From positions 1-63,434 of the forward strand of contig JAUSKT010000001.1 in NCBI GenBank assembly GCA_030646915.1: a stretch of 63,434 bases of DNA. Reading direction: 5' to 3'. Below, in pieces: positions 7,613 to 47,341 of this stretch. The notes beneath the pieces were generated by a model, which ran no database searches, was not told the origin of the DNA, and worked only from the letters and a program-made list of their open reading frames with translations. A program made the translations under genes and the position numbers. The stretch is from a bacterium (GTDB lineage: Bacteria; Patescibacteriota; Minisyncoccia; UBA6257; 02-FULL-45-10c). The stretch's first letter is position 1, and every line of letters starts with the position of its first letter.

Positions 7613-8495
7613 ATTGAACTCATTGGGTTAATGGTTCGTTCCCATTCCGACTTAATATCGGAACTTCGACTTTCCATATCGAAGCTGAACATACGGATTT
7701 CCCGTATTCAGCGAGCCCGGTATTGATGCATCTGCTTTTTTAGTTGCTTAATTTTTTCTATTCCTTTTTTATCCCAATGCTTCTTTTTTAATACCAATTT
7801 AATAATCTTTTTAAACAAAAGATAATCATAAATTTTCTTACTTTGAAGCTTATGTCGGTCAAAAAATGGAATAATCACACCGCAAATCTCTTTTAAATTG
7901 GTAGTTTCGTAACGATAACAATTATGGTGGTTAGGCCTCCTATCCAATTGGAAAGAAATCCTGCCAACCTTAAAAAATTCTTTTACTTTTTTAAGCAAAA
8001 ATAAATCATCGTCACGCAACTTAATGTAATAATGGCATTCAATTCTATAATTCTTTGACTGCCATTTAGATTGCGGCGGCTTAATATATATAGTGAAGCT
8101 TCCTTCACCATCAGTTAAGCCAACTATATATTCTGCAGATAACATAAATATTATTCCGGTTAGGCCCTTCCCGAATACATAAACATTCTATGCTCCGGTA
8201 CTATGGCACTAGCTGACTTCCTAAAAATCTTTTCTAACCCGATTTTTTAGGATCTCTTTGGGTCACTTATTTTACTTTTCCTAACATCCCGACTTTATAC
8301 TTAAATTTTTGAACTTCCTGACTGACCGCCCGCAGGAGTCGTTCAATTTTATCTTAACATGGGCTGTTATTTGCCTCAAGCCCTCCATCCAAATTATTAC
8401 TAATGTGGACTGCTATTTTTGGCTACGCTCCGATAGACAATCGGAGGAGTGGATTTTAACTACTTAGTAAAACAAGCTGCCAAACACAGTTATTT
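7613..8495 (-). mobile_element. Intervening sequence (probable self-splicing intron) inside the universally conserved 1392-1407 segment of 16S, carrying a homing-endonuclease ORF
   Basis: Exon junction GTACTCACCGCC | ... | CCGTCACTTCAGG, compared with canonical GYACACACCGCCCGTCAC. Boundaries are good to +/- 2 nt. Confidence 0.75.
7708..8145 (-). CDS. LAGLIDADG homing endonuclease (single-motif, homodimer type)
   Basis: 145 aa with N-terminal EYIVGLTDGEGSF. Same strand as the rRNA and inside the insertion. Confidence 0.9.
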   Translation of the reverse strand: MLSAEYIVGLTDGEGSFTIYIKPPQSKWQSKNYRIECHYYIKLRDDDLFLLKKVKEFFKVGRISFQLDRRPNHHNCYRYETTNLKEICGVIIPFFDRHKLQSKKIYDYLLFKKIIKLVLKKKHWDKKGIEKIKQLKKQMHQYRAR

Positions 8496-8538
8496 GGCGG
8501 TGAGTACAGGACTCGAGAACGTATTCACCGCGGCGTGA

Positions 8539-8574
<36 letters not shown>

Positions 8575-8812
8575 GCGAGTTTCAGCCTCCAATCTGAACT
8601 GGGGCCATTTTTGTTGGGATTAGCTCCGCCTTGCGGCTTGGCAACCCATTGTAATGGCCATTGTAGCACGAGTGTAGCCCAGGGTATCAAAGGGCCATGC
8701 TGATTTGACGTCATCCCCGCCTTCCTCCCCCAAACAGAGGGCAGTTTCCGATGACACTTGTAACATCAGATAAGGGTTGCGCTCGTTACCCCACTTAAGG
8801 GAACATTTCAAA

Positions 8813-8843
<31 letters not shown>

Positions 8844-8969
8844 GAATAATGTCCTTGAGAGAAGGCCACCGTTTCTGGCGGCTTTCATTATTCTTTCAAA
8901 CCCTGGTAAGGTTTCTCGCTTACTGTCGAATTGAACCTCATGCTCCACCGCTTGTGCGAGTCCCCGTCT

Positions 8970-9001
<32 letters not shown>

Positions 9002-10307
9002 TCCCAGGCGGTCTACTTAACGCGTTAGCTTCGCCACCCCGAGGGTCGATACTCGAGATAGCCAGTAGACATCGTTTAGGGCGTGGACTACAAGGGTATC
9101 TAATCCTTTTTGCTCCCCACGCTTTCGTGCTTTAGAGTCAGTAATGCGCCAGCTAAATGCCTTCGCCTTTGGTATTCCCCACGATATCAACGGATTTCAC
9201 CCCTACACCGTGAGTTCTATTAGCCTCTCGCACACTCTAGTCCGATCGTATTCCTTGCAGCCCCAAAGTTGAGCTCTGGGATTTAACAAGAAACGTGTCG
9301 GTCCTCCTACGCACTCTTTACGCCCAATAAATCCGGATAACGCTTGGAGCCCTCGTATTACCGCGGCTGCTGGCACGAGGTTAGCAGCTCCTTATTCCTA
9401 CAGTACAATCAGCCTTGCGGCTTTTTCCTATAGAAAAGAAGTTTACGATCCGAAGACCTTCATCCTTCACGCGGCGTCGCTCGATCAGGCTTTCGCCCAT
9501 TGTCGAATATTCTCGACTGCTGCCACCCGTAGGTGTACGTTCCGTGTCTCAGTAACGTCGTTGGGGATCAGCCTCTCAGCCCCCCTACTGGTCGTAGCCT
9601 TGGTAGGCCATTACCCTACCAACTAGCTGATCAGACCTAGGTCGCTCCCGAAGCCCCTTGCGAGATTTACTCTTGCGAGACCATCGGATATTAGCCCAGC
9701 TTTCGCTGGGTTATTTCCGTCTTCGGGGTACGTACCAAGGTGTTACTAACTCGTTCGCCACTAATCAGTTATTGATGTAATCACAAACTGATCCGTATGA
9801 CTTGCATGCCTTATCCACGCCGCCAGCGTTCATCCTGGACCAGGATCAAATCCTCTAAATAAAAATCAGTTGCACGAAACCCTCGAACGAGTTTCTAGCA
9901 ACTAACCTTTTATTGGGACAACTAGAAAATTTTCAATCTACAGAATTCCTGTGTTCTGCAGATTATTACTTTTTTACTTTTACTTTTTTGAACTTATTGA
10001 ACTTTTTTGGACCCGCTCATCCGCCAACTGGCGAATAAACGATTTTGCATATCATTTTTTACTAAATTAAAAAATGATACATTTACTACCCACTTGAAAG
10101 GATAGTTTCTTATGGTGATTTTGAAAATCACATTTTTCAAAGTGGCCTGTATTTATGTAACCCTTCGATAAACTCAGGGTAATTCCTACCGGAATTAAAT
10201 AAATACACCCGCCTCACCTCTCTGTTTCCACAAAGGTAAGGCGGATGCACTAAAAATATTTCTATTAAATTTTAAAGCTTAAATTGTTTTATCGTTAATA
10301 CTTATTT

Positions 10308-10335: not shown

Positions 10336-10405
10336 CCCCCACACCTAATGAGTTTTGGTTCGCTATAAGCAAACGAAATTTAACTAAACTCATTAGGTGT
10401 GGGGG
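10336..10405. repeat. 20-bp perfect inverted repeat CCCCCACACCTAATGAGTTT / AAACTCATTAGGTGTGGGGG with a 30-nt loop
   Basis: Read directly. Related C5/G5-clamped hairpins occur at 47299-47341 and 28500-28526. Confidence 0.85.
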
Positions 10406-10485
10406 TCAATAGGTGCTATAGCCTAACAAAAACTCGCTAAAAAGCGAGTTTTTGTTAATAAAAATTCTCGAGAATTTTTAACGCT

Positions 10486-11750: not shown

Positions 11751-11828
11751 CCAGGAAGTGAAACTTCGGTGGCTATACGCGATCAGCCACGACTTTATGT
11801 CGTGGCTAACCGAAGTTCTACTTCCTGG
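11751..11828. repeat. Compound hairpin: 20-bp imperfect outer IR enclosing a 9-bp perfect hairpin
   Basis: CCAGGAAGTGAAACTTCGGT ... AGCCACGAC-tttat-GTCGTGGCT ... ACCGAAGTTCTACTTCCTGG. Confidence 0.8.
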
Positions 11829-14437: not shown

Positions 14438-14465
14438 ACTTTAAATATAATTTAACTATTTAAAA

Positions 14466-14528
14466 TATCAACCCCGTTAGAGGCAGAGGCGCGCTGCGTG
14501 CCCTCGCGGCCTCTAACGGGGTCAATAT
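14466..14528. repeat. G+C-rich palindromic element (arms ATATCAACCCCGTTAGAGGC / GCCTCTAACGGGGTCAATAT), intergenic copy
   Basis: Read directly. Shares the CCCGTTAGAG...CTCTAACGGG arms with 21214-21283. Confidence 0.85.
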
Positions 14529-14532
14529 CTAC

Positions 14533-16020
14533 CTAAGAGTTAAGAATATCTATATCCTTTTGCAGCGCATTGGCTCTTTCCACTACTGGATCTCCGTAAA
14601 AGAAACGGTATTTAAACCAATTGCCGCCCGCATAATATTTCGCTGCCGCGCAGCGTTCCTGTAAAGTCTTAACTGGCAAAACATTTTTATTCGCCTGGGC
14701 ATAATCCCGGCAACCGCTGGATCCATAAGCATCATTCAAGTAAAGCGCTGTGCCCGTAAAAGCATCTCCATTATTCCAAGGCGATGCCGGACTACTTCCG
14801 GTAATATCGCTGATCCGGCTCTTATAAATATTCCAAGTTGAAGGAATGAATTGGGCTGGCCCCATCGCTCCGCCGTAAGCGCCGTGGCGGGAAATTGCGC
14901 ATGATACCAAAACAGGCTCTGGAGGAGATTTGCCTGCTGACTTTAAATCAGATAAAAGCGATAAAAATACCGGCAAATCTCTAGTTGGATGCATTGCAGT
15001 TTGATAACTGCATCTTCCCACATTTTCACCCAAAGAAGATTCTCTGTCTAAAACAGCCAGAATCATAGCCGCCCGCATCCCCGTTGACTGCTCGGCAAAT
15101 TGCGCGAGTTTATAAGCAGCCTCAAAAGATAAACTTCCGCCGCCAATCAATTCAAAGAGCCTGCTTCTAATTTGAGCGGCAGTTTTTTGAGTTTCTTTCA
15201 AAAGCGACTGAAATTTTTGTTCATTGCCCTTAGTAACATTTAAAAGATTGGATTTTTCTTGTTTTGTAAGATCGATCGCGACTTTTTGGGCGTCCTGAAG
15301 AGCTTTAAGCCTAGAAGTATCTGATTTTTTAATAGCAAGGGATTCTTGTTCGTCTAACAGCTCTTCGTGCAAGTCAACAACTTTTTCTAAAGTAGCCCGC
15401 ATGCTTTCCTGAATTTCAATCAAATTATTTACATCCGCAAAAAAATCAGAGAGTTTGGGCCGGCGCAATAAAATTTCTGCCAAACTTAAATTTTCATTTT
15501 CATAAATACTCTGCAAAGACTTTGCCAAAATGGCTTGATTCTGATCAATTTTCTGTCTAGTAGTTACAATTTGTTTTTGATTAACAATAATTTCTTGACT
15601 TAAATTTTGAAGTGAAATATTAATCGCTTTAATTTGAAGATTAACTTTATTAATTTTAGCAGTCAGGCTATTAATTTCATTTTGCAGCCCCTTCCCCTGA
15701 GTTTTATATTGGTCAATGGTAGATTCATATTGGTCTATTTGATTCTCTAAGTTTTGAAGCTGTTTTTCCAAAGCCTGCCTTTCTTCATCGCTTTGAGCCG
15801 CTAAAGACAACTGATTTTGGCCAACTGGAGCAAGCACAGAACCAAAAACCAAATAAGATATCACTCCGAAGACAATAGCTATTTTAGAAAACTTAATAAG
15901 AGGCATCCGAAAAATACGGACAGTGTCCAAATTTATCGTTTTTTTCAGATTAGAAAAAGAATCTTTTTTATGAGATAAATATAAGTCCCGAAAAACTCTA
16001 GGCTTTGGTCTATCAGCCAT
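14533..16020 (-). CDS. Membrane-anchored coiled-coil protein with C-terminal lytic-transglycosylase-like domain
   Basis: N-terminal TM segment, ~250 aa of heptad-rich Q/E/L sequence, then LAVLDRESSLGEN... and GAMGPAQFIPSTW (MltB/SLT-like motifs). Confidence 0.75.
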   Translation of the reverse strand: MADRPKPRVFRDLYLSHKKDSFSNLKKTINLDTVRIFRMPLIKFSKIAIVFGVISYLVFGSVLAPVGQNQLSLAAQSDEERQALEKQLQNLENQIDQYESTIDQYKTQGKGLQNEINSLTAKINKVNLQIKAINISLQNLSQEIIVNQKQIVTTRQKIDQNQAILAKSLQSIYENENLSLAEILLRRPKLSDFFADVNNLIEIQESMRATLEKVVDLHEELLDEQESLAIKKSDTSRLKALQDAQKVAIDLTKQEKSNLLNVTKGNEQKFQSLLKETQKTAAQIRSRLFELIGGGSLSFEAAYKLAQFAEQSTGMRAAMILAVLDRESSLGENVGRCSYQTAMHPTRDLPVFLSLLSDLKSAGKSPPEPVLVSCAISRHGAYGGAMGPAQFIPSTWNIYKSRISDITGSSPASPWNNGDAFTGTALYLNDAYGSSGCRDYAQANKNVLPVKTLQERCAAAKYYAGGNWFKYRFFYGDPVVERANALQKDIDILNS

Positions 16021-20905: not shown

Positions 20906-21871
20906 CTAAGATAGTTTATTAAATAATTTCAGCCTTGCCTTCACCACCGCTTTCATCACCTCTACTGCTTCTGGCTCAACTTTATAGGGAGCGATTTCTT
21001 CTATGTCTTTGTGAAGTCCGGATTCTAAACCCTTGCGCCACGCCACCCGGATTTCCGTATTAATATGTATAATCGCCACCCCAGCATCAATTGCGGCCAA
21101 AAAATCCGCGTCCGTATTTCCAGAACCTCCATGAAGAACAAGTGGAATTTTTACAGCTTTTTTAATAGCCTGAATGCGCTCTATGTCTAATGGATAGTCA
21201 TAACCCTTGGCAAATCCCGTTAGAGACCGCGCCCGCGCTTGCGCGCCCAAAGGGCCCATGGGGCGGGCTGTCTCTAACGGGATAAACATTCCGTGCAGAT
21301 TCCCAACTGCCGGCGCAAGTAAATCTACTTCAGTTTCTTTTAAAAATCTGGCCGCATCTTCCGGCTTGGTTAAATCTTCCGGACGAATTTTCGCCGCGCC
21401 CTTCGACAAGCTCAGGCCAAGCCCTTTTGGCAATTCTTTCCTAATGGAAGATCCGCTGCCGATATTCCCCAACTCGCCCTCGATGATAATTTCCGGATTA
21501 ATTGATTTTATATATTCAACCACTTCTTTAGTCTGCCGGATATTTTCTTCAAGCGGCAAAGTTCCGCCGTCAAATAAAATCGCATCATAACCCGCGTCTG
21601 CGGCTTTTTTTACTTCTTCTAAAGATTTAGTATGGTCGGAATTCAAAAAAACCGGTTTACCTGCTTTTTGCAGGCTTTTTACCAAAGCAACCGCCTGTTC
21701 GCGGCCGACAAATTTCGCTTCACCCTCCGAAGTTCCCAAAATCACCGGCACGCCCAATTCTTCCGCCGCTTCCACAATCGCCTTAAAGCCGATTAAATCG
21801 GCAAAATTAAAATGCCCAACCGCCACTTTCTTTTCCTCTGCTTCTTTCAAAATTTGTCTTAAATTTTTCAT
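20906..21871 (-). CDS. fba: Class II fructose-bisphosphate aldolase carrying an in-frame palindromic insertion
   Basis: VGHFNF...SDH...EGELG...APAVGNLHG...PLVLHGGSG...HINTE. Confidence 0.9.
   Translation of the reverse strand: MKNLRQILKEAEEKKVAVGHFNFADLIGFKAIVEAAEELGVPVILGTSEGEAKFVGREQAVALVKSLQKAGKPVFLNSDHTKSLEEVKKAADAGYDAILFDGGTLPLEENIRQTKEVVEYIKSINPEIIIEGELGNIGSGSSIRKELPKGLGLSLSKGAAKIRPEDLTKPEDAARFLKETEVDLLAPAVGNLHGMFIPLETARPMGPLGAQARARSLTGFAKGYDYPLDIERIQAIKKAVKIPLVLHGGSGNTDADFLAAIDAGVAIIHINTEIRVAWRKGLESGLHKDIEEIAPYKVEPEAVEVMKAVVKARLKLFNKLS
21214..21283. repeat. G+C-rich palindromic element inserted in frame in fba (arms ATCCCGTTAGAGAC / GTCTCTAACGGGAT)
   Basis: Read directly. It encodes ~IPLETARPMGPLGAQARARSLTGFA between the LHG motif and KGYDYPLDIERI. 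Confidence 0.8.
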
Positions 21872-21874
21872 AAA

Positions 21875-23155
21875 TTAAATTTCGAAATAGCCTTGCAGTA
21901 GGTATTCTTTAGCAAATTTCTCCAGTTCATCTTTACTGAAATATCCCATAAAAATCTTATTCCAAAGCGCTTCTTGATGATGATAGAGATATTTTACCAT
22001 CTCTTTTTCTTTGACCAAAGACATCACCGTATCCACCAGATTAAAACTTACCAGCACTTCATTCCCCACATCATCTTTAAAATAATCCCCCACCCAATCC
22101 AAATCATTCCAAAAGCTAAGCTCTGGGCTAAGCCGTTCTTTCTTATTTCGGTTAGAAAGCATATCCGCCGCCATAATCAAATCTTGGGAAGCCTTATCCC
22201 AATGCAAAGCCTCTGGATTCAAATGCGGAGCAAATAGCCTCCAGTCATTTTCATCGTCTTTCGCCAAATACCTTTGGACAACCAGCCACTGCGACTTGGG
22301 GCTTTCTGATAAATGCTGTGCGATCACGTCTCCCCGGAGCAAAGAAATGCAATTCTCCGAGAAAGTTTCCGGCACTTCGGCAATCTTTTTGAAAATATCC
22401 GAATAAAAAGGGATTTCATGTAAATAATGGAAAACGAGGCTTAACATCCGGAGCAATTCCCCGGAAATGCCAAGAGAAATCGGAATCACAAAAACCACTC
22501 CAAGCTCTTTCAAGTGGCTTATATTATGTTTCTTCTTCACCACAAATTTTTCCGTGATTGCCACCCATTTTTGGTCTAAAGAATGGACTACCAATTCGCG
22601 TATTTCAAAATCATCCGGCGTTAAATTTTCATACTGCTTAAAAAATATCTGATTAAGCCATTCTGAGCCTTCTAAAAATCTGAGTGCGCTGTAAAGCTCA
22701 AACAAATTTTCCTTTTCCACCATCTTTTCCGGAGAATCATATCCGAGATACTCCATTACCTTTTTAGGCGGCTCTTTAATTAAAAATTCTTTGGCCTTAT
22801 TCAATTTTAGAAAAAATCCGTGGTTAGACTCCGCGATTTTTCTGGCAATTTCCAAAATCTGATTGCAATCCTTGGAATTATCGCAGACCAATCCGCCAAA
22901 AGCTTTAAGAAGAAGATAATCATCTGATTCAATCTTGGAAATAAGAGCATCGTAGACTTCTTTGGCGCTGGAATCTCTGGATACGCCGAGCGTAAGAAGT
23001 TTTTCTTTCACTTTTTGCTCATTTTCTTTGACAATCTTTTCAAAGACGCCGGTTTGTCCGGTTACGCGAGACAAGCGGTCTTCAATTTTATAAAGAGCCT
23101 GCTTGTCAGCCCTTAAAATTTTAGCGATTTTATCCGCTGCTGTTCTATCAGCCAT
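21875..23155 (-). CDS. Hypothetical protein (427 aa from Met-18 of the track ORF) between the pfkB-family kinase and fba
   Basis: Long ORF with no motif I recognise. The start at 23155 avoids a 50-nt overlap with the upstream gene. Confidence 0.7.
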   Translation of the reverse strand: MADRTAADKIAKILRADKQALYKIEDRLSRVTGQTGVFEKIVKENEQKVKEKLLTLGVSRDSSAKEVYDALISKIESDDYLLLKAFGGLVCDNSKDCNQILEIARKIAESNHGFFLKLNKAKEFLIKEPPKKVMEYLGYDSPEKMVEKENLFELYSALRFLEGSEWLNQIFFKQYENLTPDDFEIRELVVHSLDQKWVAITEKFVVKKKHNISHLKELGVVFVIPISLGISGELLRMLSLVFHYLHEIPFYSDIFKKIAEVPETFSENCISLLRGDVIAQHLSESPKSQWLVVQRYLAKDDENDWRLFAPHLNPEALHWDKASQDLIMAADMLSNRNKKERLSPELSFWNDLDWVGDYFKDDVGNEVLVSFNLVDTVMSLVKEKEMVKYLYHHQEALWNKIFMGYFSKDELEKFAKEYLLQGYFEI

Positions 23156-28439: not shown

Positions 28440-28499
28440 AATTTAATTATAACAAAATTTAAATGAAAATCAAATCTCGTATTTCAATAAAAATAGAAA

Positions 28500-28531
28500 C
28501 CCCCACAGAGCCAAGCTCTGTGGGGGTTTTT
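28500..28531. terminator. G5/C5-clamped hairpin CCCCCACAGAGC-caa-GCTCTGTGGGGG plus a T-run, first of three G+C hairpins
   Basis: Read directly. Followed by GGTCC-aag-GGACC and GCCCCGC-ttc-GCGGGGC. Confidence 0.6.
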
Positions 28532-40678: not shown

Positions 40679-40705
40679 TATCCGCTGAATACTTAGAATT
40701 ACTAT

Positions 40706-40745
40706 CCACCTCCTTATATTTGCTATAGCAAATATAAGGAGGTGG
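40706..40745. promoter_or_regulatory. 40-bp perfect palindrome CCACCTCCTTATATTTGC-TATA-GCAAATATAAGGAGGTGG
   Basis: Read directly. Sister palindrome at 41383-41420. Confidence 0.85.
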
Positions 40746-40779
40746 AATTTAAAATTTTAAAAAAACAATTAATAAGTTA

Positions 40780-41382: not shown

Positions 41383-41420
41383 TACCTCCTTATACTTGCT
41401 ATAGCAAGTATAAGGAGGTA
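41383..41420. promoter_or_regulatory. 38-bp perfect palindrome TACCTCCTTATACTTGC-TATA-GCAAGTATAAGGAGGTA overlapping a candidate promoter (TTGCTA-17-TAATAT)
   Basis: Read directly, 40 nt upstream of the PaaX-like ATG. Confidence 0.85.
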
Positions 41421-47298: not shown

Positions 47299-47341
47299 CC
47301 CCCACACTTAATAATTACCTCCGGATTGTTAGGTGTGGGGG
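47299..47341. terminator. G5/C5-clamped hairpin CCCCCACACTTAA...TTAGGTGTGGGGG, same arms as 10336-10405
   Basis: Read directly. It lies in the convergent intergenic gap with two other hairpins. Confidence 0.6.

Follow-up and report, generated by a model that had tools for sequence, protein, structure and literature searches.

In the bacterial contig JAUSKT010000001.1, a stretch of 63,434 nucleotides that was analysed over its whole length (hereafter the window), a G+C-rich hairpin lies in frame inside the gene for a class II fructose-bisphosphate aldolase (fba). This hairpin very probably belongs to a family of non-autonomous DNA transposons of very small size (about 44-72 bp) that resemble MITEs (the miniature inverted-repeat transposable elements). 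On our best reading the element behaves like the Rickettsia palindromic elements (RPEs) yet belongs outside them. The window (38% G+C) resembles a Parcubacteria-type genome (Candidate Phyla Radiation, CPR, i.e. Patescibacteria); its genes include those for 16S rRNA, type IV pili and ribosomal proteins. The features on which the analysis is built are listed below.

21215-21282: element proper, 68 nt; T + CCCGTTAGAG + 46-nt G+C-rich interior ("class C") + CTCTAACGGG + A
20906-21871, minus strand: host gene, class II fructose-bisphosphate aldolase, 321 aa (open reading frame; PDB phmmer matches; PF01116 in homologues)
21211-21214: left target-duplication copy; CAAA on the plus strand, TTTG on the coding strand
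21283-21286: right target-duplication copy; TAAA on the plus strand, TTTA on the coding strand; 3/4 match to the left copy
14472-14521: intergenic sibling, 50 nt; C + CCCGTTAGAG + 28-nt interior ("class A") + CTCTAACGGG + G
14468-14471: left target-duplication copy of the sibling; TCAA
14522-14525: right target-duplication copy of the sibling; TCAA, identical to the left copy

A hairpin inserted in the aldolase gene

The preliminary description of this DNA had reported a G+C-rich palindrome with 14-nt arms in frame within fba. The arms, the centre and the 321-aa open reading frame (ORF) were all recovered: perfect 14-nt arms (21214-21227 and 21270-21283) flank a G+C-rich centre of 42 nt, and on the plus strand the hairpin reads ...GG[CAAA]T CCCGTTAGAG AC-42 nt-GT CTCTAACGGG A[TAAA]CA.... 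The outermost A/T pair, however, belongs to the flanking duplication, and the element itself is limited to 21215-21282. Read on the coding strand the site is ATG [TTTA] T-CCCG...66 nt...CGGG-A [TTTG] CC AAG, so that the insertion amounts to 72 nt (24 codons), made up of the element (68 nt) and an additional copy of the 4-bp target. In the minus-strand translation the insert forms residues 197-220 (IPLETARPMGPLGAQARARSLTGF), in frame and immediately C-terminal to the GNLHG motif (GNxHG in its general form).

The gene around the insert is that of an ordinary aldolase. Class II fructose-bisphosphate aldolases in PDB were matched by phmmer with E values down to 6e-37 in two aligned blocks around the insert, the invariant H80, H193 and H247 are kept, and the metal- and substrate-binding motifs are conserved on either side. 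Residues 183 to 189 of the 7ncc chain correspond to query residues 196 to 228, and PDB homologues have about 6 residues here versus 32. Among 7300 homologues the usual CPR Fba is 288-289 aa long and reads GNIHGM-F(A/K)NAPEPALD. At the DNA level the empty site reads GGG ATG TTT GCC AAT in one orthologue (L126) and GGT ATG TTT AAA AAT in another (L127). The earlier proposal that typical aldolases lack this segment is thus borne out by structures, protein lengths and empty-site DNA. Set against the duplication, the L126 site reads ATG[TTTG]CC.

The exact 10-mer CCCGTTAGAG occurs 4 times in the window, as two inverted pairs, where about 0.1 occurrences are calculated for 63 kb; with at most one mismatch there are 6 matches versus 2.1 expected. 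One pair is the fba copy and the other the intergenic sibling, whose full hairpin spans 14465-14528. The sibling had already been assigned to the same family, and the shared 10-nt arm core and the TCAA duplication agree with that assignment. The two window hairpins fold with energies between -41 and -49 kcal/mol, and their z-scores versus shuffles lie between -4.5 and -7.3. No third copy was found in the window with a tolerance of up to 2 mismatches per arm.

A dispersed family with a 4-bp target duplication

The family was searched with the pattern CCCGTTAGAG-N20-50-CTCTAACGGG, which fixes the 10-nt core termini, in one-genome-per-species GTDB contigs and in JGI metagenome contigs. This search, which the preliminary description had called for, gave at least 120 loci in GTDB genomes and at least 120 in JGI metagenomes (at least 240 overall), genic as well as intergenic. 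The data all come from metagenome assemblies; the locus counts are lower bounds, and the shares of the taxa carry no quantitative weight.

Flanks were tabulated over 123 (GTDB) and 125 (JGI) copies. Among the matches listed, the base before CCCG is a pyrimidine (Y) and the base after CGGG the complementary purine (R) in 95% of copies. Positions -5 to -2 on the left equal +2 to +5 on the right in 75-85% of the first collection and 82-88% of the second, with the consensus T-N-N-A, and there is no repeat at -6/+1 or -1/+6. Identical 4-mers flank 77/126 and 90/125 of the copies listed; the dominant duplications are TTTA, TAAA, TCAA, TTCA, TTGA and TGAA, and just 1 of the 167 identical duplications is TTAA. 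Fully (100%) identical elements were found in different taxa, at unrelated loci and with different 4-mers (L035/L039/L120, L146/L068 and L149/L102), which indicates that the repeat derives from the target and that the spread is recent. Judging from these flanks, the uninterrupted target is the palindrome R-TNNA-Y and the element is Y-CCCGTTAGAG...CTCTAACGGG-R. The copies have the hallmarks of MITEs: they are 44-72 bp long and non-coding, with terminal inverted repeats and a variable target-site duplication, and they occupy many unrelated loci while empty fba sites exist (L126 and L127).

Among the matches listed the hosts, all uncultured, comprise many Patescibacteria lineages including Saccharibacteria, Omnitrophota, Nitrospirota and Planctomycetota (Pirellulales, Planctomycetaceae and Phycisphaerae), together with single bins of Elusimicrobia, Ratteibacteria, Cloacimonadota, Bdellovibrionales and Methanosarcinales. 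The Methanosarcinales bin (L027, JAIWAR010000050.1) has 2 copies on a contig binned as archaeon, which could reflect genuine cross-domain presence or a binning error. The pattern matched just 1 of 2.9 million viral contigs, making phage an unlikely vehicle, and plasmids gave no real family copy, only chance G+C-rich partial matches. Copies of the sibling type are identical or near-identical in many CPR metagenome-assembled genomes, and genomes rich in copies include those of Omnitrophota, of Saccharibacteria and of a Planctomycetaceae (CAZBLD01). Four longer relatives of 93-115 nt (L012 1490-1582, L016 5456-5554, L048 1990-2083 and L052 2545-2659) carry their arms in the variant form CCCGTTAGAA/TTCTAACGGG and are flanked by perfect 4-bp duplications, and a 58-nt class has an additional arm copy inside, its third; the family therefore extends beyond the search pattern.

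Both window elements are strongly amplified in the groundwater metagenomes that contain the window. Word depth is 292 over the fba element versus about 9-20 alongside, and 1932 over the sibling versus 11-12 in its flanks (run X1), with amplification in X2-X4 as well; the excess over the two elements is 15- to 160-fold. Contigs from other loci match the element only and diverge exactly at 21214/21216 and 21281. Among the contigs aligned over the window, no joint skipping either element was seen. Two coding stretches, 21922-22062 and 14829-14882, also reach word depths of 115-230 versus about 10 in four groundwater metagenomes; these appear to be protein motifs conserved across the community and are not repeats within the window.

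The copies derive without exception from metagenome assemblies, and contigs in Logan end at the element; a chimeric fold-back, an adapter or a similar artefact of assembly or library was therefore considered. Breaks of this kind are, however, what a genuine repeat is expected to cause. Copies are present in assemblies of many studies and assemblers, they lie in frame within conserved genes and carry site-specific 4-bp duplications, their interiors are diverse yet structured, and orthologous copies are kept between related genomes. These observations refute the artefact. The probability that we leave to an artefact is practically nil.

Copies fit coding sequence

Among the matches listed, the arm-to-arm length is a multiple of three (3n) in 85/124 and 87/125 copies of the two collections (about 70%), and with such a length the insertion (length + 6) preserves the reading frame. 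On each strand one frame is stopped in an arm (CC CGT TAG / CTC TAA) and two are open through the arms, PVR[DGE]...SNG[VI] and PLE...(S/P)LTG[FL]. The 3n interiors are also more stop-free than shuffles (3.08 versus 2.57 open frames of 4). In a register test that demanded an ORF of 150 nt or more on either side, in register of one interrupted gene, 34/82 and 33/81 of the testable 3n copies listed passed, versus 3/34 and 2/34 of copies with other lengths. About 40% of the 3n copies listed thus lie in frame within genes, often inside a Pfam domain.

Among the interrupted genes are those for Fpg, Sua5/TsaC, an O-antigen ligase, a GAF protein, a radical-SAM enzyme, a class II aminoacyl-tRNA synthetase, glutamate synthase (GltB), FtsZ, DnaE (DNA polymerase III alpha) and DUF711 proteins. 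These genes are unrelated to one another, the positions of the copies in them are unrelated too, and both orientations and two frames are used. The RPE-like behaviour suggested in the preliminary description is accordingly seen in other housekeeping genes as well. Copies that land in tolerant loops would survive and be translated as 16-24 extra residues, the fba insert giving peptides such as IPLETARPMGPLGAQAR. Among RNA sequencing runs, none containing the window fba gene was found.

Loop model and history of the fba site

An AlphaFold2 model of the window aldolase, built from 26 homologues, has a mean pLDDT (predicted local distance difference test score) of 85.9. Residues 200-223 score below 50 and the flanking blocks average 94-98; scores under 50 are confined to the insert and one other loop. 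As the surface-loop proposal anticipated, the model is consistent with a floppy surface loop after the GNLHG motif, on a confidently predicted fold.

The same nucleotide site is filled in several other Fba lineages, with a class-C interior in P0028/L123, P0038 and P0086 and with a different, two-hairpin interior in P0011/L124. All four hold intact element copies, each with its own flanking 4-mers. In P0002/L121, the closest relative (80-85% identical), the site holds an armless G+C-rich relic, CTT GCCCGCCGAAGCCCGCAGGGCGAAGGAGGG TTT; P0003 and P0006 carry a relic of the P0002 type yet branch elsewhere in a rough neighbour-joining tree. Empty orthologues are interspersed among the filled ones, and some are closer to the window sequence than the filled lineages are.

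A shared segment in unrelated lineages had been named beforehand as the sign of an ancestral, lineage-specific aldolase loop that is palindromic by chance and involves no mobile element. The sharing is real, and the insert sits at exactly the same site in several Fba lineages. What is shared, however, are intact element copies, and nearer orthologues are empty, which argues that the insert is not an ancestral loop. Two interior classes with identical termini occur at this one site, and the same termini occur with target duplications at at least 240 unrelated loci. Empty sites, two interior classes and the other loci together refute the ancestral loop, whose probability we regard as negligible. 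On these comparisons the fba site is a hot spot of repeated gain, loss or segment exchange.

CPR aldolases also contain other patchy mini-insertions whose distribution does not follow the tree. One at 21398-21421 (Fba residues 151-158) reads LGLSLSKG in the window, P0008, P0021 and P0043, and has low pLDDT too. Others read LRQAQGK and PTPGFVRGRTSG (P0086), and P0077 and P0112 have an Asn-rich insert at the same HGM site.

Interior classes and conserved fold

Between the arms several interior classes recur, namely a 48-nt class (that of the sibling), a 63-nt class with two 7-bp hairpins, a 65-69-nt class (that of fba), a purine-rich 57-nt class and others. The 63-nt class would fold into a T, in which an outer stem carries two hairpins joined by GAC; over 11 sequences 92% of cells pair and 13 pairs are changed on both sides. 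Its covariation score is 0.374 versus 0.158 in shuffles (0/500 reach it) and at most 0.113 when the alignment is slid. With no selection for fold, both 7-bp hairpins are in register in 18/31 distinct 63-nt elements, with 22 different stems. In two orthologous DUF711 genes (L090 and L091, 90% identical) an element at the same site differs by two compensatory pair changes and an inverted loop.

Folding of the sense strand is slightly poorer than that of the antisense strand in 72 intragenic copies (+0.96 kcal/mol, p = 0.003), and the sense strand has fewer G·U pairs. The constraint is therefore not one on mRNA-sense structure and fits a DNA-level or orientation-free constraint. Rfam 15 gave only generic hairpin matches, of 8-21 bits versus gathering scores of 39-128, at gathering and permissive thresholds.

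These results bear on a different account, in which the hairpin is a structured module useful to the host (a terminator, an mRNA-stability hairpin, a protein-binding site or a peptide loop) that is kept in place, its spread being secondary. The sibling suits this account. Its position is 7 nt beyond the end of a 495-aa ORF (14533-16020, minus strand; counted from the stop codon) and upstream of the next minus-strand ORF (start 14437). A U-rich tail and a promoter-like site come after it, the -35 hexamer of this site starting inside the duplication; intergenic copies of this type may serve past stop codons as terminator or RNA-stabilising hairpins. The perfect arms of the window fba copy, beside a mere relic in the sister lineage, and the pairing retained through double changes in L090/L091 are further points in its favour. 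A module of this kind is nevertheless hard to reconcile with copies spread over unrelated genes and positions in both orientations and two frames, with encoded peptides that are wholly different between interior classes, or with an Fba insert that is predicted to be disordered. The slightly poorer folding of the sense strand, the many orthologues without insert and the lack of a matching Rfam family speak against it as well, and we consider it quite improbable as the primary explanation.

Proposed mechanism and mobilising enzyme

The element inserts at R-TNNA-Y and duplicates the 4-bp TNNA. To movement in trans by a transposase we give a little better than an even chance; its cuts in the palindromic target would be staggered by 4 bp, and a DDE enzyme (acidic catalytic triad) is the simplest candidate. 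The element is far below the length at which duplex DNA bends, and the folded form could be needed for joining its ends, a proposal that we place somewhat short of an even chance. The folded, often T-shaped form would pull the ends together, and interior pairing would be preserved in this way.

The conserved fold also suits another kind of enzyme. A folded single strand could be moved by a Y1/HUH enzyme, as for repetitive extragenic palindromic sequences and their associated tyrosine transposases (REP/RAYT) or IS200/IS605, with the T-hairpin as substrate and TNNA as recognition or cleavage site. IS608 and ISDra2 target TTAC and TTGAT, and Y1/HUH transposition makes no target duplication. The commonest left flanks, TTTAC, TTGAT and TTCAT, resemble these targets, interior hairpins are maintained through compensatory changes, and the absence of better folding on the sense strand fits a DNA-level constraint. 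Intragenic REPs are also known (PMC3733652). The variable 4-mer, however, is the same on both flanks and differs between identical elements, as in a true target duplication; the GTAG/CGTC tag is absent from the flanks, no RAYT-like or TnpA gene recurs near the copies, and the ends are perfect terminal inverted repeats instead of subterminal hairpins. A Y1/HUH mechanism thus seems unlikely, if still worth keeping in mind, and a DDE-type transposase acting in trans is preferred.

Several observations weigh against a transposon. No autonomous partner or recurrent neighbouring transposase was detected in about 1.7 Mb of flanks, which were searched for unpaired arms, for arm pairs 90-6000 nt apart with matching 4-mers (pattern-search gaps of up to 600 nt) and by clustering of all flanking ORFs. 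The class of the enzyme is therefore no more than inferred. We likewise infer the translation of the inserts from frame statistics only. The fba duplication is imperfect (TTTA/TTTG), and the P0002 relic occupies the same site while the window arms are perfect; the window copy may thus be old and still have kept its pairing in full, an outcome not expected from selfish drift alone. The alignment that gave the covariation score (A2) was chosen from sequences that fold well. Finally, the changes in L090/L091 could reflect function in situ, or template-switch correction of quasi-palindromes, in place of selection for mobility.

The translations of the window ORFs, read by eye with no family scan of these ORFs being made, contained no evident transposase. 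ORFs for large serine recombinases end 0.1-1 kb from the element in three loci (L208 1384-3048, L238 1101-2600 and L101 4347-5789), and a fourth member of this cluster lies 6.7 kb from its element; as a mobiliser, the recombinase near the 3 copies was dismissed as probably a coincidence.

Comparison with known elements

RPEs are palindromes of about 100-150 bp, restricted to Rickettsia, that are found in frame in unrelated housekeeping genes and also in spacers; they are translated into extra peptide segments that are tolerated on the protein surface, and their mobilising enzyme is not known (Ogata et al. 2000, summarised in PMC10969869). The present palindromes likewise insert in frame in protein-coding genes. 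They differ from RPEs in their length of 44-72 bp, in their termini Y-CCCGTTAGAG, in the 4-bp TNNA duplication and in an interior that often has two hairpins. Their hosts are Patescibacteria, Omnitrophota, Planctomycetota, Nitrospirota and others, and different taxa share identical copies. Taxon, length and termini therefore place them outside the RPEs, a separation based on RPE descriptions and not on alignment.

REPs are short G+C-rich hairpins, mostly downstream of genes and sometimes inside genes such as dnaE or uvrA (Di Nocera et al. 2013, PMC3733652). They have a GTAG/CGTC tag, no target duplication and linkage to RAYT genes, whereas the present family is untagged (its flank logo is R-TNNA-Y), has a 4-bp duplication and shows no RAYT-like neighbour. 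Both the flank logo with its duplication and the lack of a recurrent neighbouring gene exclude the family from REP/RAYT systems.

Palindromic elements derived from IS200/IS605 have subterminal hairpins and no inverted termini, and insert 3' of a fixed tetra- or pentanucleotide without duplication. The perfect inverted termini and the variable 4-mer duplicated on both sides do not agree with such an origin. Integron attC sites have the polarity 5'-RYYYAAC ... GTTRRRY-3' and stand at the 3' end of arrayed gene cassettes. Here the arms hold GTTAGAG 5' and CTCTAAC 3', the opposite order, and copies lie within genes and not in cassette arrays, so attC sites were also rejected.

In piggyBac and IS1380 elements a 4-bp T..A duplication adjoins termini that start with CCC, and seamless excision is possible, a property that would favour elements residing within genes; piggyBac is specific for TTAA. 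The family shares the 4-bp duplication with CC(C) termini. It departs from piggyBac in that TTAA is nearly absent (1/167), an extra Y/R base stands between the duplication and CCC, and no such transposase was found; by analogy the resemblance may serve as a lead and not as a test. Mobile hairpins of a similar kind are the G+C-rich palindromic clusters of yeast mitochondria, which occur in an A+T-rich genome and in part in coding sequence. The terminal repeats of parvoviruses are T-shaped, with an outer stem, two small inner palindromes and flip/flop inversion of the loop. The loop inversion between L090 and L091 resembles this flip/flop, although hosts, sequences and replication are unrelated and the likeness would be one of analogy only.

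Apart from the parent element, the family has the structure by which MITEs are defined. With the bacterial MITEs (Correia/NEMIS, RUP, ERIC, Nezha; PMC10969869, PMC11602168) it shares inverted termini, a target duplication, the lack of coding capacity, many copies and occasional in-frame fusions. Unlike the usual MITEs it is far shorter, has a 3n length bias and stop-free arm frames, is very often intragenic and crosses phyla, and has no identified parent insertion sequence. Two MITE surveys and reviews do not mention these host taxa. A full-text literature search, on the arm sequences and on reports from CPR, Omnitrophota and Planctomycetes of palindromic elements or MITEs, found no description of the family. 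It is apparently undescribed so far, in line with the original remark, which was aware of no description from this type of genome. Extreme shortness, adaptation to coding sequence, the conserved T-shaped fold and the distribution across phyla are what distinguish it.

Implications

For 25 years in-frame selfish hairpins were a curiosity of Rickettsia whose means of movement was unknown. An RPE-type lifestyle is now seen in at least seven other phylum-level groups, and clean termini with a clean 4-bp duplication and high copy numbers could make the enzyme findable through the correlation of copy number with transposase families across genomes. The element accounts for patchy insertions in conserved proteins of uncultured phyla (Fba, DnaE, FtsZ), loops that are able to mislead alignments, phylogenies and structure models, and it explains contig breaks in metagenome assemblies. 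Identical copies shared by taxa mark recent exchange of DNA by ultra-small bacteria with their neighbours.

A broader proposal, which we hold only tentatively and would sooner doubt than accept, joins these results into a pan-phylum group of "coding-adapted" hairpin transposons, with 3n lengths, stop-free arms and a selected T-fold, that are exchanged between phyla sharing habitats, in particular between the ultra-small Patescibacteria/Omnitrophota and Planctomycetota or Nitrospirota. The transposase would be new to MITEs, possibly a seamlessly excising enzyme of the piggyBac/IS1380 kind, and the elements would be a major source of the lineage-specific loops that hamper protein alignment in these phyla.

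Other features of the window

The window contains a second hairpin family with the same end logic. Its sequence is CCCCCACAC... with TCAA on both sides; the copy at 10336-10406 reads [TCAA]CCCCCACACCTAATGAGTTT...AAACTCATTAGGTGTGGGGG[TCAA], a shorter relative lies at 47299-47341, and a terminator-like CCCCCACAGAGC hairpin followed by a T-run is present at 28497-28529. The C-rich termini adjoining a TNNA repeat suggest a sister family with a related mobilising enzyme.

The 16S rRNA gene is just 1419 nt long for a full-length match to a 1533-position model, and at a distance of a few hundred bases there is a LAGLIDADG-like ORF (…GLTDGEGSF…) (regions 7711-8187 and 8443-9861, both minus strand). 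Neither 23S rRNA nor tRNA genes were found within the 63-kb window. Two perfect palindromes of 42 and 38 nt (40705-40746 and 41383-41420) have AAGGAGGT on both strands; each lies directly upstream of a minus-strand ORF, and they may be operators that overlap ribosome-binding sites. An intergenic inverted repeat at 11751-11828 has 20-nt arms (90% complementary) and a 38-nt spacer, and its sequence is unlike both hairpin families.

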